A stretch of DNA of 64,000 nucleotides from a virus (taxonomy: Duplodnaviria > Caudoviricetes). Position numbers and translations under genes: made by a program. Below the pieces are notes generated by a model. It saw only the letters and a list, made by a program, of their open reading frames with translations. It was not told the origin of the DNA and did no database searches. Each line of letters begins with the position of its first letter. Positions within the stretch are counted from its first letter, which is position 1. Positions 28,603-63,597 of this stretch are shown here, in pieces. The stretch lies in the IMG/VR virus record IMGVR_UViG_3300033498_000048, positions 224,001-288,000 of that record; one strand, given 5' to 3'.

Positions 28603-28660
28603 TAGCACTTGGAACAGTCTTATAATTAACTAACTGTTCCAAGTGCTAACCTGTTGATAT
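28603..28660. repeat. solitary copy of the 68-bp palindromic element
   Basis: TAGCACTT-GGAACAGTCTTATAATTAACTAACTGTTCC-AAGTGCTAACCTGTTGAT; 16-bp perfect stem; abuts the RNA ligase stop codon. Confidence 0.9.
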
Positions 28661-29794
28661 TTACTTAATTAGTCCACGAATTAAAGATTCAAACTTACGA
28701 ATTTCTAGCTTTCTCAAATAAGCTGGAATATCTGTAATAGCACCCTTTTGATATGCAAAAACTATTCCAGATAAGTTTTGATTATCTTTCATTTTTAAGC
28801 CAAGTTCTTTTCCAGTTAATGTTTTAGTGTATTCAATAAGCGTGTCTAGTTTCTGTTGTAATCGCTTGTACGCTGTTTTTATGGTTGAGTGTAGCACTGT
28901 ATGCTCTTTGTACTTATCGAGCGATAGGAACGATTTGTGTGAGTTTGTACGCACTATTTCACACATTCTACGGAAATTGTCTTTATCTATTTGTGATTTT
29001 CGTTTGATGTATTCCTCATTTGATATGAATTTAGAAGTCCGCAACAGATTAATATTGTCGTATTGTGGACTCTTTATTTTCAACCGATTAAAATTAGAAT
29101 CACACGCAACATAACCTTCCATCTTAATTGGGTCAACCTCATTTAATTCCAATAAAATATCATTCAAGGTTGATTTTTTACCAGTTGCACATTCCCATGA
29201 AATACACAATTCACGTTTAGCACGTTCAATTGACACCTCTTTAAAAGTTTTAAGATTGCGAACACCAATAAGGGTAATGTTAGGTTCTGATACTTTAACC
29301 AAAAAGTCTTCTGATGGACGTTCCATTTCAAACATATAACAATGGTCTGTAAACTTTGGTAATTCGTATTTTTTCAACTTCCAAACTTTCCAGAAATAAT
29401 CATTCATTGTAATATCTAAACCCTTAATTTGTCCAGACGCATCAGGCATACCTTTAGATGCTACATTCCATTTTCCATCATACCAATACAATGTCATCAA
29501 TGAACCATCTAACTTTTTCCAATATGTACAATCATCAAAATCGAAAGTTTGTTTTCCCATTGGATTATAATCACTAAACCTAGTAAACGGAAATGATACA
29601 ACCTTCATTGTATTAGTATCAATTATTAATCCCCTACAATTATTAGTTATGTCATTCTTTGGTGTTTCCAATTGGTCATACATCAATTGTACTAAATTTG
29701 GATATAATATATGTCTACGCATTTTTAATGAATATGTAGCAACTAATGTTTCCAATGAATTTTTAATAATGTAATCAATAACGTTTAACATCAT
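28661..29794 (-). CDS. rnlA: RNA ligase 1 (T4 Rnl1-like)
   Basis: CRGLII, FPFTRF, KLDGSL (motif I), YMFEM, EGYV, RLKIKS. Confidence 0.85.
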   Translation of the reverse strand: MMLNVIDYIIKNSLETLVATYSLKMRRHILYPNLVQLMYDQLETPKNDITNNCRGLIIDTNTMKVVSFPFTRFSDYNPMGKQTFDFDDCTYWKKLDGSLMTLYWYDGKWNVASKGMPDASGQIKGLDITMNDYFWKVWKLKKYELPKFTDHCYMFEMERPSEDFLVKVSEPNITLIGVRNLKTFKEVSIERAKRELCISWECATGKKSTLNDILLELNEVDPIKMEGYVACDSNFNRLKIKSPQYDNINLLRTSKFISNEEYIKRKSQIDKDNFRRMCEIVRTNSHKSFLSLDKYKEHTVLHSTIKTAYKRLQQKLDTLIEYTKTLTGKELGLKMKDNQNLSGIVFAYQKGAITDIPAYLRKLEIRKFESLIRGLIK

Positions 29795-29966
29795 AACCTC
29801 GTTTAGTTTGTTTAGGAAGGAACAGCACCTAAGCTATTACAGTCTTTGTAAAATATCTCAATGCGTTTTTTATTTGCATAATCATCTGCAACGTATAATA
29901 ACAATACTACACACAAATTAGTTCTACCAACTCTTGTTTTCTATATACCACATAACACCTCTTTAA

Positions 29967-30191
29967 TTAAAGTCTTCTAAAGTTGGAACATTTAACTGCG
30001 TGTGTTCCATCCAAGTAATGCTTTAGAACTGGCTTCATTTTTTTAAATTCTAAATGACTACAATTCACAATACTATCAATACAATTACAACACATTTCAC
30101 CATCTGGAAAATACTCAGGTAGTGTTCTATCAATGTAATTACCATCTCCAATTGTTTGATTACCCTCAAACACAAATTTAAGTTTTCTCAT
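29967..30191 (-). CDS. hypothetical Cys-rich protein
   Basis: 74 aa, first gene behind the promoter at 30221-30249. Confidence 0.55.
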   Translation of the reverse strand: MRKLKFVFEGNQTIGDGNYIDRTLPEYFPDGEMCCNCIDSIVNCSHLEFKKMKPVLKHYLDGTHAVKCSNFRRL

Positions 30192-30220
30192 AATGTAATT
30201 CCACGAATATCAATTTAGTA

Positions 30221-30249
30221 ATTATAAATGTACACACTAACAATGTCAA
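30221..30249 (-). promoter_or_regulatory. consensus sigma70 promoter overlapping the end of repeat array 1
   Basis: TTGACA-N17-TATAAT on the minus strand. Confidence 0.85.
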
Positions 30250-30828
30250 TCAATAAGTTAGCATTAAGTAATTAATAATAGCGTCCAAGTGCTATCTTAT
30301 TGATATTATTAGTGTATGACTACTCCAACTAAATCAACGACTTAGCACTTGCATAGAGTATTAGTTATATAACCGTTCTAAATGCTAACCTATTGATTTT
30401 GTTACATATCACCTAAAATATTAAGAATCAACAAGTTAGCACTTGTAGCCATTAGGTAATTAATAACACCATCCAAGTGCTAAGTCATTGATTTTGTATA
30501 ATTGACAAGAATGTATGGATTTAACCGTAAATCAACAAGATAGCACTTGCAGCTTGGTATTAATTATATAACTGTTGCAAGTGCTAACTTATTGATTTTG
30601 TTATTGGCTATTAAAACAATTAAGAATCAAGTGGTTAGCACCTATTGGTATCAAGTGGTTACTATTGTCAATAAATTGAGTAAAATGACCTAGTAATTAC
30701 AGTTACACTACAAACAATAGGTTAGCACTTGCAGTGTGTTATTAATTACTTAATGGCTACAAGTGCTAACTTATTGTTTTATATACAACACATAAACACA
30801 CCTAAATCAATGACTTAGCACTTGGACG
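30248..30828. repeat. palindromic-element array 1 (4 intact, 1 degenerate, 2 half units)
   Basis: Units AATCAAYRRSTTAGCACTT-N30-AAGTGCTAASYYRTTGATT at 30331, 30426, 30529 and 30712; spacing about 90-105 bp. Confidence 0.95.
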
Positions 30829-30889
30829 GATTAGCTGAAATTGGTAAACAACATAAATACCATTTTAGTTAAATTAGGGGATACAGATT

Positions 30890-31469
30890 ATGTTACTAAG
30901 TTTTAATGAATATTTGTTATCTGAGGCATACATTAACCTGATAGGTGATGACGCTAAAAAACAAAACTACGTTGATGCTGTTTGGAATATGTTACAAATA
31001 TCTTATGAGAGGATTGGTGGAATACATGATTATGGGTTTAAAGATAAACAGAATATGATTACCAATATAAATTTTTGGAAATAGCTACTAAAGATGGTAA
31101 ACCTGTAGCAGTTGCAATGTATAAAGATTCTGGAGGCAGAAAAAATTAGTTGCGTATGGAACTGATAAGTCCACAGTAGGAAAAGCAAAGATAGTTGATA
31201 TTATTAAGGCAGATATGACCAGAAGTTATATGGAACTATCTGGTGCAACTGTGACAATATTAATGAATAACATTGAGTGGAATCAATTGAAAGATTATAC
31301 ATTCACTCCAGAGCAAGCTGAAAAATTGCTAGGAAAGGATATTACACCAATAAGTCAACTACCATCAATTCCATAAGATGCGAAATTAACGTTGGCATTG
31401 TTTGAATATGGGTACATAAGAAAGATTGGTAGTGATTTACATTTTAAAGTTATGTTTGGTAAAATCTAG
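30890..31469 (+). pseudogene. frameshifted gene with capsid-targeting-like N-terminus
   Basis: MLLSFNEYLLSEAY...NFWK, shift at 31079-81, IATKDGKPVAVAMYKDSGGRK, shift at ~31140-45, LVAYGTD...TAA at 31374...YIRKIGSDLHFKVMFG stop at 31469. Confidence 0.75.
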
Positions 31470-31990: not shown

Positions 31991-32042
31991 TTAAAACTCG
32001 ATGTTAGTTGACATTTTAACTACCTTTATAATTTAAGTCAAA

Positions 32043-32234
32043 CTAAAAGTTTTTGTCTTGAACTTTAATGTTACCACTTTTTAATATCTGTAAAGCCTTT
32101 GTAGCATCACTAGATGTTTTGAAATGGAACTTTAAATTATCACGTTCAAATTCAATATTATTTTTATATTTCAATTCCCGTTCGGCATCAATAATGTTCC
32201 CTGGATTAGACAAATACAACCAATATTCATACAT
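32043..32234 (-). CDS. hypothetical protein
   Basis: 63-aa ORF with GGAG RBS. Confidence 0.45.
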   Translation of the reverse strand: MYEYWLYLSNPGNIIDAERELKYKNNIEFERDNLKFHFKTSSDATKALQILKSGNIKVQDKNF

Positions 32235-33203: not shown

Positions 33204-33226
33204 ATTACATTTATAGGTATTAACTT

Positions 33227-50217: not shown

Positions 50218-50373
50218 ATTATTATCCTTTATTGTAAAATCTAACTCTTTTGTGTGAGTCTAACCATCTACATACAAACTTCCAGAAATACCAGATGTAT
50301 GCTTCTTTAATTTCCTGCATATTTACTTCGACAAAGAAGATGAATGTTTGTTACTGTTTTCCATTATGATTAC

Positions 50374-50745
50374 CTAATTTAAATGTTGTTGTTGTGTTAA
50401 TAAGATTATTTCACATTTGATGACTTTATATCTTAGGCTCGTAAACATATCAACGGATTGCCTAGCCAACTTAGCAGTTTGACTAATCGACTCTAATATT
50501 ACATTACCACTAAGCTTGTGGACTACACAATATAAATTTCTAGCTAATATGGTTGGAGTTTTGTGTTGGTTGTTCCATGATTTATATTCAATTGGTATGA
50601 ATAATTGTAATCCAACCTTAACAACATTGCTCGTATGTGCAAAACACGTTTTTTTATGTTTTGATATTGAATTTAATATTGGGTATGAAACTTCATTCAA
50701 TGCACAATAACACTGTATAGGGTCTATATATTGTTTTAATTCCAT
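50374..50745 (-). CDS. hypothetical early protein
   Basis: Start revised to MELKQ at 50745 because the listed start (50808) lies in the -35 box. Confidence 0.5.
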   Translation of the reverse strand: MELKQYIDPIQCYCALNEVSYPILNSISKHKKTCFAHTSNVVKVGLQLFIPIEYKSWNNQHKTPTILARNLYCVVHKLSGNVILESISQTAKLARQSVDMFTSLRYKVIKCEIILLTQQQHLN

Positions 50746-50779
50746 TTCAAATCCTAAAATACTATTATGTAAATGGTGT

Positions 50780-50808
50780 ATTATAATAGCACAATGTACA
50801 AATGTCAA
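50780..50808 (-). promoter_or_regulatory. consensus sigma70 promoter just downstream of repeat array 2
   Basis: TTGACA-N17-TATAAT on the minus strand. Confidence 0.85.
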
Positions 50809-50838
50809 AATATATTTTTAACACATCAAGTCGTGGAA

Positions 50839-51127
50839 GAATCAATAAGTTAGCCCTTACAGGTGTTGGTTAATTAGTAAACGGTTCCAAGTGCTAGCTT
50901 GTTGATATTGTTAATGTTTATTATACTCAATTATATCAATAAGTTAGCACTTGGAACGTGGTATTAGATATATAACCGATGCAAGTGCTAAGTCATTGAT
51001 TCTTAATAATTGACAGTAAAAATTTAGCACTTATGGAGTGGCATTAGTTACATAACTGTTCCAAGTGCTAACCTGTTGACATTATTAGGACACAATCATT
51101 ACCAGTTAAATCAATAAGTTATAGCAT
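50839..51127. repeat. palindromic-element array 2 (3 units plus a half)
   Basis: 30-nt cores at 50859-50888, 50953-50982 and 51033-51062. Confidence 0.95.
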
Positions 51128-51144
51128 TGTAGCAAGTATTTGGT

Positions 51145-51744
51145 TCACATATTCCAAGCATCTTTATTAGTACCACCTTTCCATCGTTGGGTTGGAAGAA
51201 ATGCAACTATTTCAAATGATTCATCTGGAATATTAACAAACTTTGATTTTATGTGGTCGAGTCTATATGAATGTAGTGCGTGTTCAAAGAATTTAACTTC
51301 TGACATTTTTCTTAAAATTGACCACGATAATGATTTTTTTGCTTTTAGGTTTATGATAGCCATTAATGCCTTGGCTCTAATGACTGGAGCTAAATAATGG
51401 AAATTTAGTCCAACCATAATAGGTACACCTTGTTTAGATGTGTATGCTCCACATGGAATAACTAAAGGTAATGTGTCGTATATGTTTAGTTTGTCTTTCC
51501 ATTTTGGGTCATATTGAAACAAAACCATATCCCCTGGATTAAACTTATTAGTAACTAAATTACTATCTTGTAATAGCCTAGGTAAACGAACACTCTTATA
51601 GTTTTTTGATATGAAATTCCTAAACCAGTCCATCGACTCATCCGTATTTCTTTTCTGTTTAGTTGGATTCAAATCAAAAAACTTTTGTTCTAACCGTTTA
51701 ACTAAATCAATTTCTGTTCCTGTTGTGTTTTTTATATTTGCCAT
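51145..51744 (-). CDS. gp2: DNA end protector protein
   Basis: SMDWF, PG.M..F.YDPK.KDKL..YD.LPLVI, GLNFHYL.P, HSY...H.KS, FLPT.R. Confidence 0.93.
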   Translation of the reverse strand: MANIKNTTGTEIDLVKRLEQKFFDLNPTKQKRNTDESMDWFRNFISKNYKSVRLPRLLQDSNLVTNKFNPGDMVLFQYDPKWKDKLNIYDTLPLVIPCGAYTSKQGVPIMVGLNFHYLAPVIRAKALMAIINLKAKKSLSWSILRKMSEVKFFEHALHSYRLDHIKSKFVNIPDESFEIVAFLPTQRWKGGTNKDAWNM

Positions 51745-51758
51745 GATGTTAAAAAATG

Positions 51759-51786
51759 TTGACGTTTAAAAAAATGTGTGTATACT
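51759..51786 (+). promoter_or_regulatory. sigma70-type promoter
   Basis: TTGACG-N16-TATACT with TGTG extension, ahead of 51828. Confidence 0.6.
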
Positions 51787-51827
51787 GAAGTCCACAATTA
51801 AGTAAACCACATAACAGAAGATAAATC

Positions 51828-52124
51828 ATGTACTATAAATTTACAAATCCTACTAAAAAACACACATTGATAATTGAAGCTAAATCTAAACTACAAGCCA
51901 TGGCAAAAGCTGAATCACATGGCGAGGTATTTGAATCAACAAGTGAAGTGTGTGATTATGATTGTAGTTCTACTGACACAATAGGTTTTGAATATGTGGA
52001 TGGATTTATTGAAGAAGTCCATTCTAACAAACCAAAATTGCGTGATTTTATAATAAAAGGTTATTGTGAAACTGTATCACTAATTCCATTAAACGGTACA
52101 CGCATATACACTGAAAAACTTTAA
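51828..52124 (+). CDS. hypothetical early protein
   Basis: 98-aa ORF behind the promoter. Confidence 0.6.
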   Translation: MYYKFTNPTKKHTLIIEAKSKLQAMAKAESHGEVFESTSEVCDYDCSSTDTIGFEYVDGFIEEVHSNKPKLRDFIIKGYCETVSLIPLNGTRIYTEKL

Positions 52125-52175
52125 TTGGTCCAATAAAATAGGGAGCTACTATATTGACTTAGTAGCTCCCATTTA

Positions 52176-53132
52176 TTATATTTCAATTGGACCAACAACT
52201 TCTGGTTTATACATACTACCTTCTGGTCCATAAGCAACAATATCATAAACCTTGTCTTTTGTTCCATAAAATTCCCAATATGCCGAGCTATCGGGAACAA
52301 TTTTATGTGTTTTTCCATCTGGTAATTCTCGAATCAATACTACACTTGCTGGACTGTATGGGTGTGTACTATCTTTTGCAATTCCAGATAACATCTCATT
52401 ATATGCTGATAGCGTGTATATGGTATTAACACAACTTAATCCCACGTCAAAATCGAACATAACCACGTCTTTAAACAACGAAGTTGAATTAGCTATAGTA
52501 GCATCAAGACTCTTACCAATATGGCAATAGGGGCGATTTAACGCAGCTATTTGTGCAATATTGATGGTATTGTCTTCAATCAATATTCCATTTAGGTAAA
52601 CTGAAAACTTATTAGTTGTTGGATTTAACGTAAGAGCAATGTGATACCATGTGTTGTCTAATAAATTCACAATTGAGGTAATTGATAAATCACCATAAAT
52701 TAAATTTGTTAGTCTACAAAATATTGTATTATAATTGGTGTCTTTAATTATATCAATTGAGTTTTGTATTCCATTGGAATCTGATGTCAATGAAAATAAA
52801 CAATATTGATAATCCCTAGATGATATGTCTTTACTATTAAACCAAAACATGATAGTAATTCCAGTTGAATTGATGTTATTTAACAAATTATTAGTTGGAA
52901 TTGTTAAATAACTATTAATAGATTTTTCTAAAAATAATCCACCGAATTGTGTATTCGCATTGCTTTTAGGAATTGTAGTTAATGTTGCGTCATGTCCGTT
53001 AAAACCTTCATCCATGATATTAGTTGATAAGTCCCCTTGCAATCGGTAAAAAACAACAGGCTTATTAACCAAAACCTGTTGTTTTACTGGACTACAATTC
53101 CTAGCAAAAGGACTTTGTGTTAGTTGTATCAT
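52176..53132 (-). CDS. LamG/ConA-like lectin domain protein (probable virion appendage)
   Basis: VFYRL, ITIMFWF, NTWYHIALT...SVYLNG, HIGKS, FKDV..FD. Confidence 0.8.
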   Translation of the reverse strand: MIQLTQSPFARNCSPVKQQVLVNKPVVFYRLQGDLSTNIMDEGFNGHDATLTTIPKSNANTQFGGLFLEKSINSYLTIPTNNLLNNINSTGITIMFWFNSKDISSRDYQYCLFSLTSDSNGIQNSIDIIKDTNYNTIFCRLTNLIYGDLSITSIVNLLDNTWYHIALTLNPTTNKFSVYLNGILIEDNTINIAQIAALNRPYCHIGKSLDATIANSTSLFKDVVMFDFDVGLSCVNTIYTLSAYNEMLSGIAKDSTHPYSPASVVLIRELPDGKTHKIVPDSSAYWEFYGTKDKVYDIVAYGPEGSMYKPEVVGPIEI

Positions 53133-53609
53133 TTAAACATCTTTCACGAAATCTTCTATCCAATCTAGTCCTAAGCTTGGATAATTCACTTCTATATTCT
53201 TTTTAATTAAACTTAAAGTTTCTCCTGATTTAGTTAATTTTTTAACATCCTTTTTTGCAGCATTTAATAACTTATAGTTTACTCCACCATTGTAGCTGTT
53301 TACAATTTCTTTTAATGATTGTTCCATTCTATTTTTTATAGATTTAGTACAGTTTTTTTGGTGTTTAATAATTGTTTGTTGTAGTGATTTTAGTTGTGTT
53401 ATACACATATCATCAACGCGATTTGGATATGTTAAAAAATATCCAAATCGCCCTTGCTCACTATCAAATAAAAATAACACCAATTCAACCGATGTTAGTG
53501 TTTCAGTGTTTAGGATTGATATTATGGAACGGCATGACATTCCTGTTTTTATATAAGTTTTCATGTAACCCAAGGATTCGATTAATTGTGGAACTAGACT
53601 TACATCCAA
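53133..53609 (-). CDS. hypothetical protein, paralog of 54293-54604
   Basis: IL.TETL...EL..FLFD...G.F.YFL..P...DD..I.QLK.LQQT.IK.Q.NCT shared with 54293-54604. Confidence 0.65.
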   Translation of the reverse strand: MDVSLVPQLIESLGYMKTYIKTGMSCRSIISILNTETLTSVELVLFLFDSEQGRFGYFLTYPNRVDDMCITQLKSLQQTIIKHQKNCTKSIKNRMEQSLKEIVNSYNGGVNYKLLNAAKKDVKKLTKSGETLSLIKKNIEVNYPSLGLDWIEDFVKDV

Positions 53610-53644
53610 TATAAACCATGTAAGTCTTTAGTTGAGTTATTGTG

Positions 53645-53941
53645 TTATTTAATTACCGTTGATATAGCTCGCTCAAAAGCTGATTTGAAATTATCAAAAT
53701 TGTCTAAAAACTCTTTAGTTTTACCTTTATCTGGCTTTCCATTTGAATAGAAATGTAATGAATCAGATGATGGAATACTATCGAATATGTCAACTTGGTT
53801 AATTGATGTTAATGATATTAAGTAATCAAAAAACGGTTGTACCATATCGTCCGTAAGTTGTGAATCTATTTTATCCCAACTGTTACGAATCCAATTAGAA
53901 ATGTGGTCAAAGTCTGATAGTTGTGGATTATCTGTTGTCAT
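53645..53941 (-). CDS. hypothetical protein
   Basis: 98-aa ORF with AGGA RBS. Confidence 0.55.
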   Translation of the reverse strand: MTTDNPQLSDFDHISNWIRNSWDKIDSQLTDDMVQPFFDYLISLTSINQVDIFDSIPSSDSLHFYSNGKPDKGKTKEFLDNFDNFKSAFERAISTVIK

Positions 53942-54234
53942 GTTTAAGTCCTCATTGTTTATTATTAAAGCGTGTGTTGTATCGCAGTTAATTTTGAAAT
54001 ATCATAGTCGATATAATCTTTGTTACTTCCAAGGTAAAGTTTACTCACTCCAGCACCTATCAACCTCGCATACACTTTTAATACAGATTTTTCGTCTCCG
54101 TTTGTTGGGATATACACGTTTAACCATGAGTTTTTCAATCACAAGATTTCCAATAGAAGGTTGGTGATTGATAACAACTGTGTCATTGCGTTTCATAATA
54201 AATTCTCACTTTGTGTCGATTTTCGATGGAACAA

Positions 54235-54263
54235 ATTATAATGATATTCAAAACTAAAGTCAA
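54235..54263 (-). promoter_or_regulatory. sigma70 promoter
   Basis: TTGACT-N17-TATAAT on the minus strand. Confidence 0.75.
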
Positions 54264-54292
54264 ACTATTTATTATAAACAAGTCTAACAAAA

Positions 54293-54604
54293 TTAGGTGT
54301 TATAGTTAGATTCAATTTCAGCTAAGGCTTTTTTCATTTGCCGTTTAATTGCAGGAGTGCAATTTGGTTGATATTTGATAACAGTTTGTTGTAATACTTT
54401 TAATTGTTCTATTACTTTGTCATCGGTAATATCAGGATTCACTAAAAAGTATTCAAATTGTCCTGAAGCATCATCAAATAAGAATGAATCCAACTCACCT
54501 GTTGATAAAGTTTCAGATTTTAGTATTGAATTTATCTTTTCAACTGACATTCCAGGTTTTATAATGGTTTCAGATTCACTTAAGAATTGTCCAAATGTTT
54601 TCAT
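54293..54604 (-). CDS. putative internal head protein
   Basis: MKTFGQFLSE closely resembles the T4 IP capsid-targeting sequence MKTYQEFIAE. Confidence 0.65.
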   Translation of the reverse strand: MKTFGQFLSESETIIKPGMSVEKINSILKSETLSTGELDSFLFDDASGQFEYFLVNPDITDDKVIEQLKVLQQTVIKYQPNCTPAIKRQMKKALAEIESNYNT

Positions 54605-54613
54605 GTTTATTCC

Positions 54614-55315
54614 TTATTTGTTATAAAATGGGTTATCGTCAATTTCACTTAAAGGGTTTTCTTTAAGCATACTTTTAACCATGTCTAATATCTTTGTATC
54701 CAAATGGTTTTTTAACCAAGGGTTAGATGTCATATTTATAGACGAGTCAACATTCATATCCATCAACTTTTGTATTTTTTTATTGGCTTCTTGTCCCAAT
54801 TCGTTAATGATAACATCGTCTAACTTTTTAACACCTTGATAAATTGCATTAGAAATATCATTAAACGAATCAGCTCGTGATAACCAAGACATTCTTCTTG
54901 AAAATTCACGTTCAGCTTTCCCAGTTTCAGTGTTAATAGACCATTGTGGAACTGAACCATTATTTATTCTACGCAATATTTCAACTCGGTCTTTTTGAAC
55001 TTTAACAGCGTTTTCCCATATTGTTGGATAATCACGTCTTAATTCAGATATATCATCTTGTTGGACTAATGCAATAATAGCTTGCATTTTATCGAAAATT
55101 ATTTTATCAATTTCAACCTTTTCAGGTGATTCTTGATATATGTCTTGTTTTATTTTATTGATTTTTTTATGTAAACTGGGATTACCTCCAGCTAAGATGT
55201 TTCCATCATGGTCAACATATATTGACCCACCTCTGCCCATTCGTTTCCAAGTTCCACCAGATAATGCCTTTTGGTCAGCCTCTGACAAAACCATAAAATC
55301 TTTAATGCTTATCAT
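54614..55315 (-). CDS. putative internal head protein
   Basis: MISIKDFMVLSEAD; W..MGRGGSIYVD.DGNILAG motif. Confidence 0.55.
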   Translation of the reverse strand: MISIKDFMVLSEADQKALSGGTWKRMGRGGSIYVDHDGNILAGGNPSLHKKINKIKQDIYQESPEKVEIDKIIFDKMQAIIALVQQDDISELRRDYPTIWENAVKVQKDRVEILRRINNGSVPQWSINTETGKAEREFSRRMSWLSRADSFNDISNAIYQGVKKLDDVIINELGQEANKKIQKLMDMNVDSSINMTSNPWLKNHLDTKILDMVKSMLKENPLSEIDDNPFYNK

Positions 55316-55450
55316 ATTAATTTATCCTATATTATGGTTGGTTTTGTTGTATTTATTATATTTGAATACTAGGCTATAGAGTCATTTATTACTAATGGTC
55401 CAGTTTCTTTTCGTATCATCATGGACATTAGATTCAACTTAGATACGACT

Positions 55451-55524
55451 CATCTTATGTCCAGTGTGTTATATTAAGTTTAGTATAAATACAAGAAATC
55501 AAATAACACACTGGACATAAGATG
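55451..55524 (+). promoter_or_regulatory. translational-sequestration hairpin with an internal late promoter
   Basis: Perfect 22-bp inverted repeat 55451-55472 / 55503-55524 covering the ATG at 55522; TATAAATA at 55484-55491 in the loop. Confidence 0.85.
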
Positions 55525-56325
55525 GCAAAATTAATAAACGACAAGTATTACACTCCATTAGAATTGGCTCAATATTGTATAGATAAAACGCATCAAATTA
55601 TAGGGAATAAAAATATCACTGAATATATTGAACCATCAGCTGGAAATGGGTCATTTAGTTTATTATTACCTGATTGTATTGCATTTGATATTGAACCTGA
55701 GCATCCATCAATTATCAAACAAGACTTTTTAATGATTGATATACCACATAAATCTGGACGATGTGTTATTGGGAATCCTCCATTTGGAAAAAACAATTTA
55801 TTATATAGGAGGTTTTGTGATAAAAGCTTTAATATTGCTGATTATGTTGCTTACATTTTACCTATCAGTCAATATAATAACAGAAATCTAATTTACAAAT
55901 TTGATTTAATTTATAGTGAAAAGCTTAATCAGGTGTTGTTTAGTTCGGCTAAACAAGTTCCAGTTTGTTTTAACATTTATAAAAGACCATTAAGTGGAAT
56001 TTACAATAAACGTCCTAAATTATACCACAAATATATTAAGTTTATATATAAAACTAGGCACTCGAACGAAATCATCAATGATTTTGATGTGATAATATGT
56101 GCATGGGGGAGTAATGTTGGTAAACCAATAACAGATTTAAATGCTCCTAGATGGACATCAAGTATGTACATTAAATTTATTGATGGACTAGATACTTCAA
56201 TTAAAAGCAAACTAATAGAATCAATATCAAATGTTGATTGGAAACTCAAATATAGTATGCCTAGAAATGGGTCAATATCATATTGGCATATTTATAATTA
56301 TCTAAATGAAATTGTTAAGGAGTAA
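55522..56325 (+). CDS. N6-adenine DNA methyltransferase-like protein
   Basis: DKYYTP, IEPSAGNGSF (SAM motif I), FDIEP, DFL, IGNPPFG (motif IV). Confidence 0.85.
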   Translation: MAKLINDKYYTPLELAQYCIDKTHQIIGNKNITEYIEPSAGNGSFSLLLPDCIAFDIEPEHPSIIKQDFLMIDIPHKSGRCVIGNPPFGKNNLLYRRFCDKSFNIADYVAYILPISQYNNRNLIYKFDLIYSEKLNQVLFSSAKQVPVCFNIYKRPLSGIYNKRPKLYHKYIKFIYKTRHSNEIINDFDVIICAWGSNVGKPITDLNAPRWTSSMYIKFIDGLDTSIKSKLIESISNVDWKLKYSMPRNGSISYWHIYNYLNEIVKE

Positions 56326-56331
56326 CATTAT

Positions 56332-56820
56332 ATGGCTAAAAGAAAAACAGCACAAGATAAAGAAGCTGAATACCAAAACAACCCTTGGATGTTTAATAAT
56401 GAACCGTTCAATGATTGCAAACAATATGCTGGATTTGTTTATGAAATAATAGACTTAGAAACCAGTAAACGCTATATTGGAAAAAAGTTTTTTTGGAGTA
56501 TGAAACGGGTTCCAGGTAGAAAAAACCGAATCACTGTAGAATCTACATGGAGAGAATATTATAGTTCCAGTGTTGAGATTAAGGCACTGGTTAAAGAATT
56601 TGGAAAAGCTAGATTTAAGCGAACCATATTATCAATACACGAATTAGAAAGGGATGTTAATTATGAAGAAACAAGGCAATTATATACTAAAAAGGTATTA
56701 TCAGAAGTGAATGGTGATGGTGAATTGGTTTATTATAATGGAAACATTGAAGGTAAACGATTTTCTAATCTTTGTATTGGAATAGAAAATCGTAGTTTAT
56801 TTGCAATGGAAGCAATTTAA
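56332..56820 (+). CDS. GIY-YIG family endonuclease
   Basis: GFVYEI......RYIGKK, ES.W..YYSS, YYNGNI. Confidence 0.85.
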   Translation: MAKRKTAQDKEAEYQNNPWMFNNEPFNDCKQYAGFVYEIIDLETSKRYIGKKFFWSMKRVPGRKNRITVESTWREYYSSSVEIKALVKEFGKARFKRTILSIHELERDVNYEETRQLYTKKVLSEVNGDGELVYYNGNIEGKRFSNLCIGIENRSLFAMEAI

Positions 56821-56834
56821 TAAAGTTTTTATTA

Positions 56835-57071
56835 TTAGTCCACAATAAAAGATATGTTATCATAGCCACTAAAATGGTGTAACTTTGGAAACACCGAAAT
56901 GGTAAACCAACAACCAAACTCAAAGTAGTCGTTCATCATTTTGTCTTTAGAACACCCAAATTTATTCTTTACATTAACACCAGTTGATAAATCCAAACTC
57001 GTAGAGGTAAATTCGCACCCATTACTAGAAGTGTGTTGGATAACAATTATTGATTTTATAGATGTGGACAT
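56835..57071 (-). CDS. hypothetical early protein
   Basis: 78 aa with AAGGA RBS, behind the promoter at 57104-57132. Confidence 0.55.
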   Translation of the reverse strand: MSTSIKSIIVIQHTSSNGCEFTSTSLDLSTGVNVKNKFGCSKDKMMNDYFEFGCWFTISVFPKLHHFSGYDNISFIVD

Positions 57072-57103
57072 AATGATTCCTTTAAGTTCTCAATGATGGT
57101 TAT

Positions 57104-57132
57104 ACTATAATGTGTTGGAGTTATAATGTCAA
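57104..57132 (-). promoter_or_regulatory. sigma70 promoter overlapping the end of repeat array 3
   Basis: TTGACA-N17-TATAGT on the minus strand. Confidence 0.75.
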
Positions 57133-57373
57133 TCAATATGTTAGCATTTGCAACGGTTAAGTAACTAACACATTCATTGATTGTGTTGTCATAAATACTT
57201 GCTGTAATAGAATCAATGAGTTAGCACTTGGAGCTATTACATAATTAATAACAATGTCCAAGTGCTAACTCATTGATAGTTATACTATTCACATCAATTA
57301 TGAAAAATCAATGGGTTAGCACTTGGAACTATCATATAATTACTAACACGCTGCAAGTGCTAACTTATTGATA
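57131..57373. repeat. palindromic-element array 3 (2 intact plus 1 degenerate unit)
   Basis: 30-nt cores at 57230-57259 and 57325-57354. Confidence 0.95.
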
Positions 57374-57375
57374 GG

Positions 57376-58059
57376 TCAACCAACACCAATAAGGTTTTGA
57401 ACTGGGTCAATGATTACTAATTCCTTTGTGCTTGGACGTATCATAAAATTATCACTATGTAAATCACTCATAAAGTTTTTAAACAAAGGCTCGATTAATC
57501 GCAAAGCTTTTATTAAATTATCATCTGTAATTCTGGATTTAAGTTTCAAACGTCTAGTTGGGTTTGCAAATTGTTGTCTAATATCAAGATACAAGTCATT
57601 TAAGTTTCTGTAGCTATTAAATGGGTCAAAAAAACCCAATGATTTAAACATATTCCATACAAATTTAGCATCTTCATGGAATAACGGCATTAAACGTTCT
57701 ACTACCATGACCAGCATATATTTTTCTTGTGTTGGTTGTATCAATGTTCTATATTTTAAAAAGTCAATATCATCTTCTGTTAATTCTGAATTGTCATACA
57801 TCTTATAGGTATAAACTTTTGGAAAATATGGATTATTTTCGTGATTAACACACAATCTTAAAAATTGAACAGAAGCATCATTCTCACCTGTTACATTAAC
57901 AACCTTTATAATCTTGTTAGCATCTTTAGTGTGAGCATATACCAAGGCTTGAACTCCAGACCCTAATAGCTTTTTATCTTTCATTATACCATTGAATTTT
58001 GTATCAGATTTAGGGAGTTGTAATTTAACTTCCCTAATATAGTTTTGATAGGACAACAT
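57376..58059 (-). CDS. Ser/Thr protein kinase-like protein with capsid-targeting-like N-terminus
   Basis: MLSYQNYIRE; LGSGVQALVY (Gly loop), IIKV, FPKVY, VERL, DLHSDNFM (catalytic loop), VIIDP. Confidence 0.85.
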   Translation of the reverse strand: MLSYQNYIREVKLQLPKSDTKFNGIMKDKKLLGSGVQALVYAHTKDANKIIKVVNVTGENDASVQFLRLCVNHENNPYFPKVYTYKMYDNSELTEDDIDFLKYRTLIQPTQEKYMLVMVVERLMPLFHEDAKFVWNMFKSLGFFDPFNSYRNLNDLYLDIRQQFANPTRRLKLKSRITDDNLIKALRLIEPLFKNFMSDLHSDNFMIRPSTKELVIIDPVQNLIGVG

Positions 58060-58078
58060 TTATTATCTCCATGTAGTA

Positions 58079-58436
58079 GTGAGTTAGCACTTGCGATAGG
58101 TATATAATTAACAACACTGTTTCCAAGTGCTAACTCGTTGATTTAATTATAGTAAATATTTATGGTAATGGAATAAATAGGTTAGCACTTGGAACGGTTA
58201 TACAATTAACTAACACCTGCAAGTGCTAACCTATTGATTCTTAGTAATTGACAATGATTGTAACTTAACCAACTATCAATGACTTAGCACTTAGACACAT
58301 TAGGTAATTACTAACAATGCCCAAGTGCTAACGCATTGATTTAATTGAGTTTAGTGAATGTTATTATAATCAACAAGTTAGCACTTGGAACGGTTATATA
58401 ATTAAGACCACACTGCAAGTGCTAACTTATTGATTC
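58079..58436. repeat. palindromic-element array 4 (4 units)
   Basis: Cores at 58093-58124 (32 nt), 58191-58220, 58293-58322 and 58387-58416. Confidence 0.95.
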
Positions 58437-58467
58437 TTATACACAACTTTACATAATAAGGAACAAA

Positions 58468-58617
58468 ATGAACATAATATATTTAATGTGGGTTATTCAC
58501 AATGTAATTATTCATCCATTAATGATGCTTATGTCTGTTAGTAAGGCTAACGCATTACACGATGCGAATGCAATTTGGGCTTTTAAATTGAACACGAAGG
58601 TAATCAACGATGCTTAA
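58468..58617 (+). CDS. small hypothetical protein, not in the ORF track
   Basis: 49 aa MNIIYLMWVIHNVIIHPL...LHD; AAGGA RBS. Confidence 0.45.
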   Translation: MNIIYLMWVIHNVIIHPLMMLMSVSKANALHDANAIWAFKLNTKVINDA

Positions 58618-58639
58618 CTTTAAACAGTTTTGTTTATTA

Positions 58640-59235
58640 GAATCTACATTAAGTGATAATGAAATTATTGAATTGGGAAACCGAATAAGAAATACTTTTA
58701 AAACAAATGATGTTGAAATGAACTATAATTTATTATCAACATTCATATCTTAATATTGGAAATAGATGTCCAAGTTTTTTCATTAAACACTAAGAAAAAA
58801 GTTGTGAAAACTAATGTCACATTTGGAAATGTTCAAATTGAAAATCAATCATCGCTGAGTGAAAAACGATTTATTGAATTGGCTGGAATGGTAACTGATT
58901 TATTGAGTAAGTTTCAATGTGAATATAAAAAGGCATTATCTGGAAAATTAAAATTCGTATTCAAACCATCATCCGAACAAAAGGCAAAAGCAACTTACAA
59001 ATCAGAGCTTGATGAAATATGGATAAGCAATTCAACAGAAACTTTAAAATTATTTACAAAAGAGTTATATGGATTGCCAAATTGGTTTAATTCAAGTTAC
59101 ATAACATCTAAGTATTCGGTTAGTGCTGGATTCGCAGATGAAGAAAATTGGGCTGAATGTTTCGCAATTGCTTTCTTTGGTCAATCAATTCATCCCAGAT
59201 TATACAAATTGGCAAAATGTAATAAACAAATTTAA
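58640..59235 (+). pseudogene. probable remnant of a zincin-like metallopeptidase gene
   Basis: ORF 58756 has a weak TTG start; A.Y....DEIWI and SKY......EENWAECFA motifs are present, but no HExxH lies between them. Confidence 0.35.
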
Positions 59236-59257
59236 AATAGGCTTAGGTTGTTTCTAC

Positions 59258-59495
59258 GTCCAAGTGCTAATTCATTGTCAATTACTATAATCAACAAGTT
59301 AGCACTTACAGCTTGGTCTTAATTATATAACTGTTCCAAGTGCTAAGTCATTGATAGTTAGTAATTGACATAAATAGTAACTTAACCAACTATCAATGAC
59401 TTAGCACTTGGTCATTGTTAGTAATTACCTAATGTGTCTAAGTGCTAACACATTGATTTAATTGAGTATAATATTAACAAGTTAGCACTTAGACG
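59258..59495. repeat. palindromic-element array 5 (2 units plus 2 half units)
   Basis: 30-nt cores at 59308-59337 and 59410-59439. Confidence 0.95.
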
Positions 59496-59544
59496 ATGTT
59501 AATGATTATGGTGTATTGAACAAATCTCGACATACGCAATAGAA

Positions 59545-60003
59545 TCATTGTTTGCGTTTTTTAATACCTAAATCATATTCATTCATAATTTGGAAAGTAA
59601 AGTTGTGTAATCTAGCCCATTCGATAGCTGCTTTCCACTTATCCTGATTTACTTGCCATGTAATACATTCATTAATAAAAGTTGTTTGTCGTTTACGTCC
59701 TTTAACTGGAGGTATAGTTTGGTCATGTGGTTTAATTTCAATAATAATGTCTTTTAATGAACCATCTTTCATTTTCACTTTAATAAAGAAGTCTGGAAAA
59801 TACCTTCTTAATTTCTTATCAGCTTGACTATAATATTGTATTGCTTGAATTTCACTACCCCATAATTCAACAGATGGATTCATATCACACCAACGCATAA
59901 ACTTAGTTTCCCATGAACTCCTAGATATAACATTGGTACTGTCTCCAACATATTTCTCTTTGTTTTTAACCACATATTTAATTGGTGTCGGAAATCTTTT
60001 CAT
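59545..60003 (-). CDS. gp4: head completion protein
   Basis: NKEKYVGD...VISRSSWE.KFM.WCD.NP.V..WGSE, RRYFPDF, IEIKP..QT, NQDKWKAA. Confidence 0.95.
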   Translation of the reverse strand: MKRFPTPIKYVVKNKEKYVGDSTNVISRSSWETKFMRWCDMNPSVELWGSEIQAIQYYSQADKKLRRYFPDFFIKVKMKDGSLKDIIIEIKPHDQTIPPVKGRKRQTTFINECITWQVNQDKWKAAIEWARLHNFTFQIMNEYDLGIKKRKQ

Positions 60004-60015
60004 TTGTATTACATT

Positions 60016-60023
60016 TATAAATA
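60016..60023 (+). promoter_or_regulatory. T4-type late promoter
   Basis: TATAAATA 25 nt before gp48. Confidence 0.7.
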
Positions 60024-60047
60024 TAATATTTATGTGAGATTAATACT

Positions 60048-60860
60048 ATGTCAATATTAGATGTATTTGATTCTGCTGTTAGTTCTGTAGCTAATACGGT
60101 TTTAAAATCAGTAACATCATTTGAAATTGGAAAATCATTTGGAATTCTTAAATATCCAGCCACAGTTGGGGAAGGTGTTTTTCCATCATGTATTCAATTT
60201 CAAGAATATAAACGGAGCAGTCCAATGGAAAGCTTACCTTGGACTACAATTTATATGTATATGCCTGAAAAGGTATCTAATCCATCACAAATTTCATGGG
60301 AAGGAAATGACACATTAGCAGCAAGTCAAATGAAAAAAATGAATGATGGGCAGTTTACCAGTGCTGCTGGGGCGTGGGCTTCAAGTTCTATTGCACAAAT
60401 ATTAAATGAAAAGGCTAGTATGTTGGGTACAGATTTGGACACTGTATTAGGTGCTGGTGGAAATATGATACAGAATCCATATTTAACTATGATGTTTAAG
60501 GGTGTAGACCAACGTGATTTTTCATTTGAATTTAAGTTGTTTCCACATTCTAGGTCTGAGTGTGATAATATTCACAATATCGTAACTGCATTTAGGGCTG
60601 CTGCATATCCAACTGGAAATTCAAATGATGCGTTATTAGGTTATCCTAGCGAATTTGAAATCCAATATCTATTTAACGGACAACAAAATAAATGGTTAAA
60701 TAAGTTCAAACGAAGTGTAATAACTAATGTGGATGTAGATTATACAGGTTCAGGTGGATGGACAGTTACACGAGATGGTTTTCCATCAGAAATATCACTG
60801 ACAATAGAATTTAAAGAAATGCAAGTATTAACATCATCTGATATACAAGCAGGATATTAA
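60048..60860 (+). CDS. gp48: baseplate tail-tube cap
   Basis: IYMYMP, NPY..MMFKG...RDFSFEFK..P.S..E, YPSEF.I.Y, VDYT, L.IEFKE. Confidence 0.85.
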   Translation: MSILDVFDSAVSSVANTVLKSVTSFEIGKSFGILKYPATVGEGVFPSCIQFQEYKRSSPMESLPWTTIYMYMPEKVSNPSQISWEGNDTLAASQMKKMNDGQFTSAAGAWASSSIAQILNEKASMLGTDLDTVLGAGGNMIQNPYLTMMFKGVDQRDFSFEFKLFPHSRSECDNIHNIVTAFRAAAYPTGNSNDALLGYPSEFEIQYLFNGQQNKWLNKFKRSVITNVDVDYTGSGGWTVTRDGFPSEISLTIEFKEMQVLTSSDIQAGY

Positions 60861-61424
60861 ATGGGAATGTTTAATAAGTTTGAAAGATACAAATACACAT
60901 TAGATGGAATAATAACAAATGTTACTAATATTGGAATGTCAATATTAATTGATACAGTTAGAAATGTAGACAATCGTTTTGCATTTCAAAAGTATGTAAT
61001 GTCTGAAAATGAGATTCCAGAAAGTATTAGTGAAAAAATGTATGGTGATGCTAAGTATTATTGGACTATATTGGTTGTAAATGATATTATCAATCCATTT
61101 CACGATTTACCATTAGACTCAGAAACATTGATTGATTACATTAAAGACAAATATGTTGATATATATGAAATCCACCATTATATTAATATGTCAGACAATT
61201 CATTGGTTGATGATTATAATACTGATATTATTAGAAATAGTAATGACCCGATACCAGATACCATTCGAGCAATTACTAATTATGAATATGAATATGAATT
61301 AAATGAAAGTAAAAGGAACATTAAAATTGTTAATCCAGTATTTATAAAGGACTTTACCTATTCATATATGAAAGCATTGGACACAAAAATAGAATCTACA
61401 ATTCAAGAGGAAGACATATTATGA
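60861..61424 (+). CDS. gp53: baseplate wedge subunit
   Basis: PE.IS..MYGD..YYW.ILVVNDIINPF.D.P, NY.YEYE.NE.KRNIK. Confidence 0.93.
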   Translation: MGMFNKFERYKYTLDGIITNVTNIGMSILIDTVRNVDNRFAFQKYVMSENEIPESISEKMYGDAKYYWTILVVNDIINPFHDLPLDSETLIDYIKDKYVDIYEIHHYINMSDNSLVDDYNTDIIRNSNDPIPDTIRAITNYEYEYELNESKRNIKIVNPVFIKDFTYSYMKALDTKIESTIQEEDIL

Positions 61425-62665
61425 TTAGTGACAAGGGTATATTACCAACAGACTTATCACAATTTCAAGTGACGATTAATGGAAAAGATGTATCACAAGC
61501 TATTAGTGGAGTTATAATCTATCAAGATGTTTTATCTCCTATATGGACTTGTGAATTGCAAGTTGCTGATACCAACAATTTAATTATGAATGTTCCAATA
61601 GCTCCAGGTTCAACTATTGAAATTGAAATAGAATCTAATCAGGGATTCTCATTAAATGGTAGTAAATCTTATGAGTTTGTGGTATTTGGAATTAATGATA
61701 AAAAGTTTATTAATTCAAAGTTCCAAACCTATATGGTTAGTGGTGTTAGTCCAGAAATAATAAAGAATCAATCTATTAGGGTAAAAAAATCATATCAAGC
61801 ACAAAGTCCAACCGACATTGCAACAAACATCATTAAGAACTCATTAGGAGCATCATTAGAAGTTGATTCAAGTGAAAATACAATAACCACAATTGTATCT
61901 AATTTAAGTCCATTTACTGCTGTTAATAAAATGTGTAAAGTTGCCTTGTGTAATGGAGCAGCCGATATGATATTATTCCAAATTGATACTGGAAAATTCG
62001 CCATGAAAAGTATCGAAAAAATGTATTCAGATACAGATTCTGGGGTTACTTTTATATTAAAACCTGCTGGAATAAAAGACAATTCTGGTAATTCCACCAC
62101 TGATTTGACATTAAGTATCGTTGATTATAATATGGAACATTTCAATGCTATGAGTAGTTTGGGTAGTGGAATGTTTGGTAATAAAACCGTTTCATTTGAT
62201 TTTATGTCTAAAGCATTTACTTCAAAAACGTTTAAATATGGTGATGATAATAAGCAGGACAATTCAAAAAAGTCTTGGGATAGTGAAACCTTTGAATCTC
62301 CAAATTCTAACATCACGTTTGTTCCTAAACACACCAATCTCCATACCGATGATACAGCTTTTACATCAATGGACAAATGGGTTGGGTCAAGGAAAAGTTC
62401 AATAATGAAGCTTGAGCAAGATAGGTTAATATTGCAAGTTCCAGGTGCTGTTAAGGCGTGGGAATTGATAGGTAAATCGTTTAATGTAGATATGCCATCA
62501 CAACAATCTATGTCCGATGGAGAAGACTTAGACCTATATTATAAGGGTGCTTACCTATGTATAGCAATAGCTCATTTTTATGGTAAACATGGAGCATGGG
62601 TAAATATTGCTGGTGTTAAAAAGAGATTAGAAAAGTCAATGAATAGTAGCTTTTCTATTAGTTAG
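61421..62665 (+). CDS. baseplate hub protein (gp27-like)
   Basis: IYQD..SP.W, S.RV.KSY, F...S.E.M, VPG......G, Y.G.YL...I.H; baseplate operon context. Confidence 0.55.
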   Translation: MISDKGILPTDLSQFQVTINGKDVSQAISGVIIYQDVLSPIWTCELQVADTNNLIMNVPIAPGSTIEIEIESNQGFSLNGSKSYEFVVFGINDKKFINSKFQTYMVSGVSPEIIKNQSIRVKKSYQAQSPTDIATNIIKNSLGASLEVDSSENTITTIVSNLSPFTAVNKMCKVALCNGAADMILFQIDTGKFAMKSIEKMYSDTDSGVTFILKPAGIKDNSGNSTTDLTLSIVDYNMEHFNAMSSLGSGMFGNKTVSFDFMSKAFTSKTFKYGDDNKQDNSKKSWDSETFESPNSNITFVPKHTNLHTDDTAFTSMDKWVGSRKSSIMKLEQDRLILQVPGAVKAWELIGKSFNVDMPSQQSMSDGEDLDLYYKGAYLCIAIAHFYGKHGAWVNIAGVKKRLEKSMNSSFSIS

Positions 62666-62687
62666 TAAATTTATTTCCAAGACAATT

Positions 62688-63395
62688 ATGCCAACCTTAG
62701 ATACATCTTTAAAATATGAACGTGATGCTGCTTTACAAATTCATGGAAAAACAGCTTCTATTACACAAAATGGTTTACCAGTTACCAATGTTACCAATTT
62801 TGTTAATCTATTATCAATGGGGTTAGCCAAATCTAATAAATATTTTGTTGAATTTAGATTACCGAAGGGTTTTAGTGAATCAGCATTTAGTCCAGGTGTC
62901 AATGCCGAAAGTGCTTCAACACACATTAGAGCAGTTGAAAACATATTAAATAACAATAACACTATTGGATTAATGTGTCACACTCTAAGTATGCCAGCTA
63001 GAGCCTTAGAATCATATTCACACAAACAATTAGTTTCACCATATAAAGTTCCAAAGGGAATTGAAGAATATGAACCAGTTACGTTTAGCCTATATTCAAG
63101 TAGTGACTTAAACACCAGACATTATTTTGACGTGTGGCAGTCAACAGTTGTTAATGTTGGAAGTAATACCTTAAATTATTATGATGAGTATGTTTCAGAT
63201 GTGAACATTTATCTAATTGATGATGAAGGTAAATACTCTCCATATTTTATCACACTGTTCGAGGCATGGCCCATGAATATCGGTGAACTCCCATTATCTT
63301 ATTCATCTAACAATACATTCCAAACAGTTACCGTTACATTAGCTTACAAACACTGGAAATCATCATTCGACACCACTAAAATGGGTACTTTCTAA
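62688..63395 (+). CDS. gp54: baseplate tail-tube initiator (gp54-like)
   Basis: GLAKSNKYFVEF..P, C..LSMPAR, YEPVTF, R.YFDVWQ, Y.DEYV.DV.IY, L.EAWP..IG.L.LS. Confidence 0.7.
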   Translation: MPTLDTSLKYERDAALQIHGKTASITQNGLPVTNVTNFVNLLSMGLAKSNKYFVEFRLPKGFSESAFSPGVNAESASTHIRAVENILNNNNTIGLMCHTLSMPARALESYSHKQLVSPYKVPKGIEEYEPVTFSLYSSSDLNTRHYFDVWQSTVVNVGSNTLNYYDEYVSDVNIYLIDDEGKYSPYFITLFEAWPMNIGELPLSYSSNNTFQTVTVTLAYKHWKSSFDTTKMGTF

Positions 63396-63401
63396 AATAT
63401 G

Positions 63402-63597
63402 TGTCCAAATGCTAACTCATTGATTCTAGTGAATATGTGTTTAAACAACCAAATGGTATGGGAATCAATAGGTTAGCATTTACAACCATTAGGTAATTAC
63501 TAACCCGTACCAAGTGCTAACGCTTTGATTTAATTGATAATAATATACACTAATAATATCAATTGGTTAGCACTTGGTACGGTTAGTTAATTAGTAC
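63402..63597. repeat. palindromic-element array 6 (1 unit plus 2 half units)
   Basis: Core at 63482-63511; the half unit from 63557 retains its TAATTA centre. Confidence 0.93.

Follow-up and report, generated by a model that had tools for sequence, protein, structure and literature searches.

Intergenic gaps in a 64,000-nucleotide stretch of viral DNA (the window: positions 224,001-288,000 of the 305,782-bp record IMGVR_UViG_3300033498_000048) carry palindromic units of about 68 bp, in which two inverted arms enclose a core of nearly constant length, and the question that they raise is what such a unit does. We tentatively favour the answer that the units form phased platforms for protein binding to duplex DNA at the boundaries of transcription units, possibly with the DNA-bending protein IHF among the binders, and that they double as substrates for recombination. 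The record was assembled from a microbial-mat metagenome, has terminal repeats and a G+C content of 31%, and is 88% coding. A Gp23 match (E 2e-128) places the virus among T4-like phages; among cultured phages its gp23 is closest to that of Acidovorax phage ACP17 (62%), followed by Stenotrophomonas and Xanthomonas phages (57-59%), and the closest gp23 in IMG/VR is no higher than 58%. We regard it as an uncultured jumbo phage of T4 type.

Number, placement and geometry of the units

A strict scan for TTAGCACTT-N25-35-AAGTGCTAA found 12 matches in the window, against none in 100 dinucleotide shuffles, and 60 in the whole genome, against none for the pattern read backwards. An nhmmer profile, run on the whole genome and the basis of all counts of full and partial units, recovered in the window exactly the 17 intact units at seven loci that an initial annotation had claimed. 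It also found eight or nine partial or half units there, at the row ends where half-sites had been described, and no unit at window positions 1-28602. The family is not confined to the window. Spread over the whole genome are about 95 full units and 44 partial ones, grouped at 43 intergenic loci, each with a row of 1-9 units.

The geometry is strict. A core of 30 nt, claimed for 15 of the 17 window units, was reproduced, the exceptions measuring 29 nt (unit at 30331) and 32 nt (unit at 58078), and genome-wide the arms of a pair lie exactly 30 nt apart in 81 of 95 cases. Where the spacing of neighbours was first put at ~90-105 bp, the genome-wide counts are 26 pairs at 93-96 bp and 5 at 102-105 bp.

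Placement is equally restricted: 95% of unit bases are intergenic, with tandem, divergent and convergent gaps alike, and no unit was seen to interrupt a gene anywhere in the genome. Rows lie mainly in variable regions outside the capsid block, and none occurs at genome 87-116, 185-215 or 217-252 kb, which include the capsid region. Some single units occupy very short gaps inside apparent operons.

Anatomy, pairing and orientation

From the outside inwards, a half unit reads taaa-AATCAA-YRRS-TTAGCACTT-RSAnCn-(G)TTAnn-TAA. The arms are 19-bp inverted repeats that face outward (AATCAA-YRRS-TTAGCACTT) and thereby form terminal inverted repeats, and their YRRS segment is drawn from a few discrete types (TGAG, TAGG, TGAC, TAAG and CAAG). 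Conservation is column-specific. Among columns unused for detection, ATCAA is conserved at 91-98% and the central TAA at 86-98%, core position 3 falling within the latter range, and the columns beside them hold about 0 bits.

Core halves sort into six classes (A-F) and two types, X (classes A and B), in which RTTA lies 6 nt from the arm, and Y (classes C-F), in which the equivalent motif lies 7 nt from it. Units combine X with Y in 70 cases, X with X in 11 and Y with Y in 1; no unit has two core halves of one class, and the two halves of a core are identical at far fewer positions than expected by chance (z = -6.4). Oriented from X to Y, the core consensus is RSAACn-RTTAKR-TAAYTA-ATAMCA-CnnTSY. 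Within it lies a 17-bp quasi-palindrome, RTTA-N9-TAAY, around TAATTA; because this inner site is odd and the core measures 30 nt, the outer segments are 6 and 7 nt long and X is paired with Y. Five cores of 29 or 31 nt, compared by inspection, keep the 17-mer intact and alter only an outer segment, and thus the inner site is a module of its own. The TAATTA centre that had been proposed is therefore correct as far as it goes (TAAYTA or TARTTA in 76 of 87 units) but incomplete, as the core is built asymmetrically around the inner site. The spacers form a family too, with a polar motif like TAATTGA(C/G)-A-ATGAATGATAAC in either orientation, and no higher-order pattern of unit and spacer orientations was seen inside rows. 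Unit flanks are rich in A 5' of the unit and in T 3' of it; they are also palindromic (TTAAATCAA...), such that a TA or TTAA target duplication is not distinguishable from flank sequence.

The arms do not vary as the two sides of a selected stem would, whether of an RNA hairpin or of a cruciform. Arm position 12 pairs in 38 of 81 units (odds 0.81) and position 13 in 47 of 76, polymorphic columns match between arms at chance level (Fisher p 0.12-1.0), and the NNNN segment is the same in both arms of 19 units, against 12.8 expected. Mismatches between arms on the sense strand (n=185) comprise 58 G·U, 51 A·C and 76 of transversion type, and neither compensatory change nor a bias of G·U over A·C was found on that strand. 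Orientation is likewise unrelated to transcription, since the X-to-Y direction of the core divides 20:20 and 7:7 with respect to gene strand, and the spacer motif lies with transcription 16 times and against it 18 times. An Rfam search at E<=1 returned only sub-threshold miRNA-like hairpin matches, none reaching the gathering score. Because pairing is unselected, orientation is free and conservation is column-specific, we read the pattern as protein recognition of duplex DNA, in which the arms would act as independent half sites and the geometry would be set by the complex. This agrees with the initial proposal of a protein-bound DNA site rather than an RNA terminator.

Units are mosaics in linkage equilibrium, arm type being independent of the adjacent core class (p = 0.38). 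Pairs of units with similar cores and informative flanks are concordant in orientation in 6 cases and discordant in 7, and in the best case of a flip the cores at 58284-58331 and 59401-59448 are reverse-complementary at 29/30 positions, with flanks that match directly at 53/68. Searches of the genome at E<=1 with PF00589, PF00239 and PF16684 (tyrosine and serine recombinases and protelomerase) found nothing, and PF01797 (Y1 transposase/RAYT) is absent as well; the earlier statement that no cognate recombinase is visible in the window can thus be extended to the whole genome. As the genome lacks recombinase, protelomerase and Y1 transposase, the flips are best explained by recombination or template switching between inverted arms. 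Small hairpin-loop inversions between inverted repeats are a known generic process in plastid DNA (PMC12371153). The arms are repeated about 220 times in the genome in both orientations and for this reason would serve as recombination substrates.

The units of the window, which carry no strand, and the promoters that adjoin their rows are as follows, in window coordinates.

28603..28659: unit, 30-nt core (genome 252603-252659, E 2.7e-14), in an 87-bp gap between two minus-strand genes, its left outer arm truncated by the adjoining gene end
30221..30249, minus strand: sigma-70-type promoter TTGACA-N17-TATAAT (12/12), reading into gene 29967-30191; its -35 shares the last base of the 30.2-30.8 kb row
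30248..30305: degenerate unit with shortened core, first of the 30.2-30.8 kb row (E 7e-9)
30331..30399: unit, 29-nt core
30425..30494: unit, 30-nt core, classes B/D
30529..30598: unit, 30-nt core, classes C/A
30624..30660: weak partial unit (E 1.2), arm segment ATCAAGTGGTTA duplicated
30711..30779: unit, 30-nt core, classes D/B
30805..30836: half unit at row end (E 3.7e-5)
50780..50808, minus strand: sigma-70-type promoter TTGACA-N17-TATAAT (12/12), ~30 bp outside the first unit and directed away from the row
50839..50908: unit, 30-nt core, classes B/E
50934..51002: unit, 30-nt core, classes C/A
51018..51080: unit, 30-nt core, without left outer arm, starting only 80 bp after the previous unit
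57104..57132, minus strand: sigma-70-type promoter TTGACA-N17-TATAGT (11/12), reading into gene 56835-57071; its -35 joins directly onto the terminal half unit
57131..57172: half unit at row end (E 5e-7)
57210..57278: unit, 30-nt core, classes A/D
57305..57373: unit, 30-nt core, classes A/D, ending 3 bp from gene 57376-58059
58078..58144: unit, 32-nt core
58172..58240: unit, 30-nt core, classes A/B
58274..58342: unit, 30-nt core, classes B/D, flipped-core partner of 59391..59459
58368..58436: unit, 30-nt core, classes A/C, with an outer TTGATT that is a possible -35
59256..59277: weak arm fragment (E 0.05)
59289..59356: unit, 30-nt core, classes C/A
59391..59459: unit, 30-nt core, classes D/B, flipped-core partner of 58274..58342
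59472..59508: half unit at row end (E 1e-3)
63390..63426: half unit (E 4e-4)
63462..63531: unit, 30-nt core, classes B/D
63556..63601: partial unit at row end (E 1.5e-7)

Two neighbouring genes of the window rows deserve mention. A small open reading frame of ~49 codons with a good ribosome-binding site (58468-58617, plus strand) directly follows the 58.1-58.4 kb row; upstream of it stands TTGATT-N16-CATAAT (9/12), in which the TTGATT of the arm may act as the -35. Between two rows, gene 57376-58059 (minus strand) encodes a 227-aa protein that matches the PHROG of the T7 gp0.7-type protein kinase (E 3e-12), annotated as an inhibitor of host transcription and regulator of RNase III/E. Its sole database homologue (36% identity) lies on a 5.8-kb Logan contig that also holds a cluster of tRNA-like genes (contig positions 3650-4210) and on which none of the palindromic units was found.

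Promoters, IHF-like boxes and the preferred reading

The genome contains about 87 TTGACA-N16-18-TATAAT sites close to consensus, of which many match it at 12/12 positions, and 15 of the 87 have a row directly upstream, involving 15 of the 43 loci. In three the -35 is fused to a unit end (window 30221-30249 and 57104-57132; genome 116593). The late promoter of the phage is of T4 type, TATAAATA, as upstream of gp23, and late promoters adjoin rows at genome 69180 and 87122, before Laminin_G_3 structural paralogues. A strict scan of the whole genome for canonical intrinsic terminators found only 6, one of them beside a row; together with the ~87 sigma-70-type promoters this suggests that the host has a canonical sigma-70 and that transcripts end in an unusual way.

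Three more specific promoter roles were rejected for parts of the element. As promoters, the spacers would need a correctly spaced -10, which their AATTGAC/G motif lacks, and their orientation is random; the core (TATAATTA) differs from the TATAAATA late promoter that the phage uses; and for the arms as MotA boxes the genome has no MotA gene. The only genes enriched beside rows belong to the Laminin_G_3 structural paralogue family, and no DNA-binding candidate or origin-associated gene was found there. This five-member plus-strand family of large Laminin_G_3/CarboxypepD_reg proteins lies outside the window (genome 49458-51329, 69215-71068, 87165-92386 and 289309-291477); three members start or end right beside rows, and two are preceded by TATAAATA late promoters.

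The outer 13 bp of the arm correspond to the IHF consensus WATCAANNNNTTR (taken from PMC10380432), which 134 of 174 arms (77%) match at a fixed position. Of 221 matches genome-wide, 162 fall inside units, and the 59 outside are at background level (70 for the backwards control). Canonical TTGACA/TATAAT promoters and gp23 relatives among proteobacterial phages make an IHF-bearing host plausible only. IHF binding on the arms is plausible, with a second factor needed.

The preferred reading builds on the anatomy and geometry of the units, the absence of selection on pairing, orientation independence, adjacency to promoters, and the lack of recombinase and transposase genes; from these we infer protein binding, IHF as one binder, and a regulatory or architectural role. 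The 68-bp unit would be a module of IHF-like arm boxes, very strongly conserved TTAGCACTT boxes beside them and the inner 17-bp RTTA-N9-TAAY site, bound as duplex by a symmetric factor or set of factors. The likeliest candidates would be host DNA-bending IHF on the arms and a second host or phage protein on TTAGCACTT and the inner site. With a period of ~95 bp, or about nine helical turns, the rows could then assemble nucleoprotein into phased blocks that mark the boundaries of transcription units where the genome is early and gene-shuffled. At about a third of loci these blocks would sit directly upstream of strong early (sigma-70-type) or late (TATAAATA) promoters, where they may act as architectural, boundary or upstream elements, and recombination between arms would flip cores and spacers and reshuffle the rows.

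Several observations weigh against this reading and temper our preference for it. Only about a third of loci adjoin a strong promoter, at distances from row to -35 of -1 to 89 bp; given the two thirds of loci without such a promoter and the variation in distance, the rows would be boundary or upstream elements and not fixed-position activator sites. A protein bound to the single units in short operon gaps would be a roadblock. The best-conserved part of the arm, GCACTT, lies outside the IHF consensus, and thus IHF alone cannot explain the element; additionally, the phage genome has no HU/IHF gene, and conservation within the unit shows no significant helical periodicity (p = 0.09). Outward-facing IHF-like boxes within rows are only about 27 bp apart, although isolated units have room. 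The complex of IHF with the H' site has a footprint of ~35 bp, centred a few bp upstream of WATCAA, from which it follows that two IHF dimers could hardly occupy both boxes at that distance. The near-absence of terminators leaves space for a role at the transcript level.

Distribution, competing explanations and significance

Copies of the unit are scarce elsewhere. Exact-pattern scans of IMG/VR gave only unrelated single hairpins and one chance match in a tRNA region, a scan of JGI metagenomes with the centre motif gave none, two GTDB scans covering 185,579 prokaryote species genomes gave none, and the first 50 kb of Acidovorax phage ACP17 contain no inverted-9-mer family. None of the RNA runs searched holds the phage. 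Contig fragments from one freshwater metagenome, compared with window 50300-64000, belong to a relative that is 90-97% identical and has the same units with 27-nt spacers. At the 50.9-kb locus the array of this relative differs past the first unit and the flanking gene is conserved. Judged by these searches, the family is lineage-specific, as copies occur only in this phage and one close freshwater relative, and its rows turn over quickly.

The JGI scan without the centre motif returned 28 matches in two seemingly unrelated families. The first, on nine low-GC JGI/ENA contigs (37-42% GC), is a conserved divergent promoter region with TTAGCACTT-N30-AAGTGCTAA, and thus has the 9-mers and spacing of the phage unit, but its flanks and core differ. 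The region is bounded by an AAA-ATPase-like gene and a 315-aa gene, with a 195-aa tyrosine recombinase downstream. Its likeness to the phage unit is probably coincidence, although the region could serve a TTAGCACTT-reading protein as operator. The second, on twelve high-GC contigs (55-61% GC), consists of long 7-nt-repeat hairpins built from TTAGCAC, TTGGCAA and TTAGCAT, a separate repeat family; one of these hairpins separates an ECF sigma factor gene from its zf-HC2 anti-sigma gene.

Among the alternatives, the one to be taken most seriously, although we think it unlikely, is a selfish or near-neutral palindromic repeat of REP or MITE kind, spread and homogenised within the phage lineage by recombination, template switching and unequal crossing-over, with PeSL-like gene shuffling as its only consequence. 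Such a repeat would account for the 44 or so partial and decayed copies beside 95 full ones, the mosaic units with flipped cores and scrambled spacer orientation, the changed 50.9-kb row in the freshwater relative and the limitation to one lineage, and loop inversions of the generic kind would serve it as well. However, the genome has no transposase, RAYT or recombinase that could carry it, prokaryote genomes hold no copy, no gene is interrupted by any unit, and column-specific conservation, the restricted YRRS alphabet and the fixed 30-, 17- and 95-bp lengths are not products of neutral decay.

Known bacterial repeats of this kind offer likenesses of a limited sort. BIME-1/RIP (RIB) and REP elements of E. 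coli are also intergenic palindromes in ~100 copies, combine inverted repeats with the IHF consensus and are mosaics of few motifs. REPs are GC-rich, 35-40 bp long and chromosomal, have the IHF site between two REPs and are associated with RAYT transposases, whereas the units described here are AT-rich and phage-borne, have IHF-like boxes inside the arms facing outward, and come with neither RAYT nor prokaryote copies. Correia elements of Neisseria resemble the units in being small, abundant and intergenic; they too have an IHF site and terminal inverted repeats, and their outward ends resemble a -35 and can make promoters together with adjoining DNA (PMC2649163). Correia elements measure 100-150 bp, with the IHF site in the core, TA target duplication and RNase III processing (PMC2649163); the units measure 68 bp, with two IHF-like boxes in the arms and tandem, phased rows, and no target duplication could be discerned at them.

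We consider it improbable that the units act as RNA, that is, that they are transcribed into 19-21-bp hairpins that serve as processing sites for RNase III or another enzyme, as mRNA stabilisers or as unconventional, possibly bidirectional, terminators. A corollary of this idea is that they would be the stem-loop half of a terminator-promoter cassette of PeSL type. Either strand of the units folds well as RNA (-17 to -38 kcal/mol, z -2 to -10), between flanks that are A-rich 5' and T-rich 3'; rows lie between the end of one gene and the next promoter, single units occur within apparent operons, canonical terminators are nearly absent (6 in 306 kb), and the gene beside two window rows resembles the T7 gp0.7 kinase with its annotation as RNase III regulator. 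These points are outweighed by the arm comparisons, in which compensatory change and G·U bias on the sense strand are missing and 76 of 185 mismatches are of transversion type, and by the random orientation of the asymmetric core and spacer with respect to transcription. A fixed 30-nt loop with conserved palindromic motifs, in rows of up to 9 units, is also unlike a terminator. The tail is only moderately T-rich (39-69% T), whereas a terminator has a short loop and a U tract; units are present in just 6 of 38 convergent gaps, and no Rfam family matches.

The analogies to promoter-early stem-loop (PeSL) elements and to baculovirus hrs that had been drawn for the units hold as resemblances of architecture and position but not as memberships. 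PeSLs and the units are both conserved intergenic repeats in T4-like phages, mostly located outside conserved late and structural blocks (PMC2839356, PMC4122927), and both are likely substrates of recombinational shuffling. At about 15 loci here a stem-loop-forming repeat lies just upstream of TTGACA-N17-TATAAT promoters. However, a PeSL comprises a single short stem-loop with a G/C clamp, fused to a single promoter (PMC2839356, PMC4122927), whereas the arms of the units are 19 bp long and conserved in sequence, their structured core is fixed at 30 nt, and they have no promoter of their own. They form phased rows of up to 9 units, two thirds of their loci are without a strong promoter, and their pairing is unselected; a stem-loop fused to an early promoter was not found as the general form of the element, and the spacers hold no correctly spaced -10 boxes.

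Each of the 3-8 units of a baculovirus hr measures 64 bp and contains a 24-bp palindrome, and hrs have origin and enhancer activity (PMC4535591). Their dispersed rows of repeats of about 65-95 bp with an imperfect palindrome, laid out independently of position and orientation in a large double-stranded DNA virus, are closely paralleled by the 43 loci of 1-9 units reported here. The differences are that baculoviruses belong to another virus realm, with no sequence relation, and that hrs bind IE-1 and have proven origin and enhancer activity (PMC4535591, PMC2834656), whereas the element described here is known from sequence. Moreover, hrs number about 5-9.

It is doubtful that the rows are replication origins or enhancers of the hr sort, with an early phage protein on the palindromes and many places of initiation or stimulation, even though their architecture, their position upstream of promoters and their AT-rich cores and spacers would suit such a function. 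Forty-three loci far exceed any known origin set, and neither a candidate binding protein nor an origin-associated gene lies beside the rows. T4-type phages, moreover, replicate mainly by recombination-dependent initiation.

A site-specific recombinase or invertase that acts on the units and inverts their 30-nt core, in line with the recombinase, resolvase or protelomerase target first suggested, is very improbable: cores inverted between copies with same-direction flanks would be expected from it, but the genome encodes no tyrosine or serine recombinase, Y1 transposase or protelomerase, hairpin template switching or homologous arm recombination yields flips without such an enzyme, arms that stand 30 nt apart with TAATTA 12 nt from each misfit a crossover site of inverted arms around 6-8 bp, and an invertible segment of 30-48 bp is, to our knowledge, too short for synapsis by known invertases.

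We return to the phased protein-binding platform as the preferred reading. The new elements of this work are the tests of pairing and strand bias, the X/Y grammar of a 17-bp site in a 30-nt core, the orientation statistics, the genome-wide lack of mobility enzymes and the database scans. The grammar (independent arms, an odd 17-bp site in an even 30-bp core, and free core flipping) makes falsifiable predictions about binding, for which the 68-bp unit is a concrete, synthesisable probe. Should the unit prove to be bound by host IHF or a phage factor, T4-type phages would have their first described architectural system of the hr-like or BIME-like kind. There is a small chance of something more far-reaching, namely an undescribed cis-acting phage system, a counterpart of the hrs, in which helically phased sites composed of IHF-type box, TTAGCACTT box and 17-bp inner operator would gather host IHF and a phage factor into nucleoprotein blocks that organise transcription units or replication of the jumbo genome, or else a sink for host IHF; in the latter variant about 200 consensus sites per genome copy would disable IHF-dependent functions of the host or of competitors. 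As about a quarter of the non-coding DNA of this phage is one rigidly built element, that element probably has a leading part in organising the reading, copying or reshuffling of the genome.

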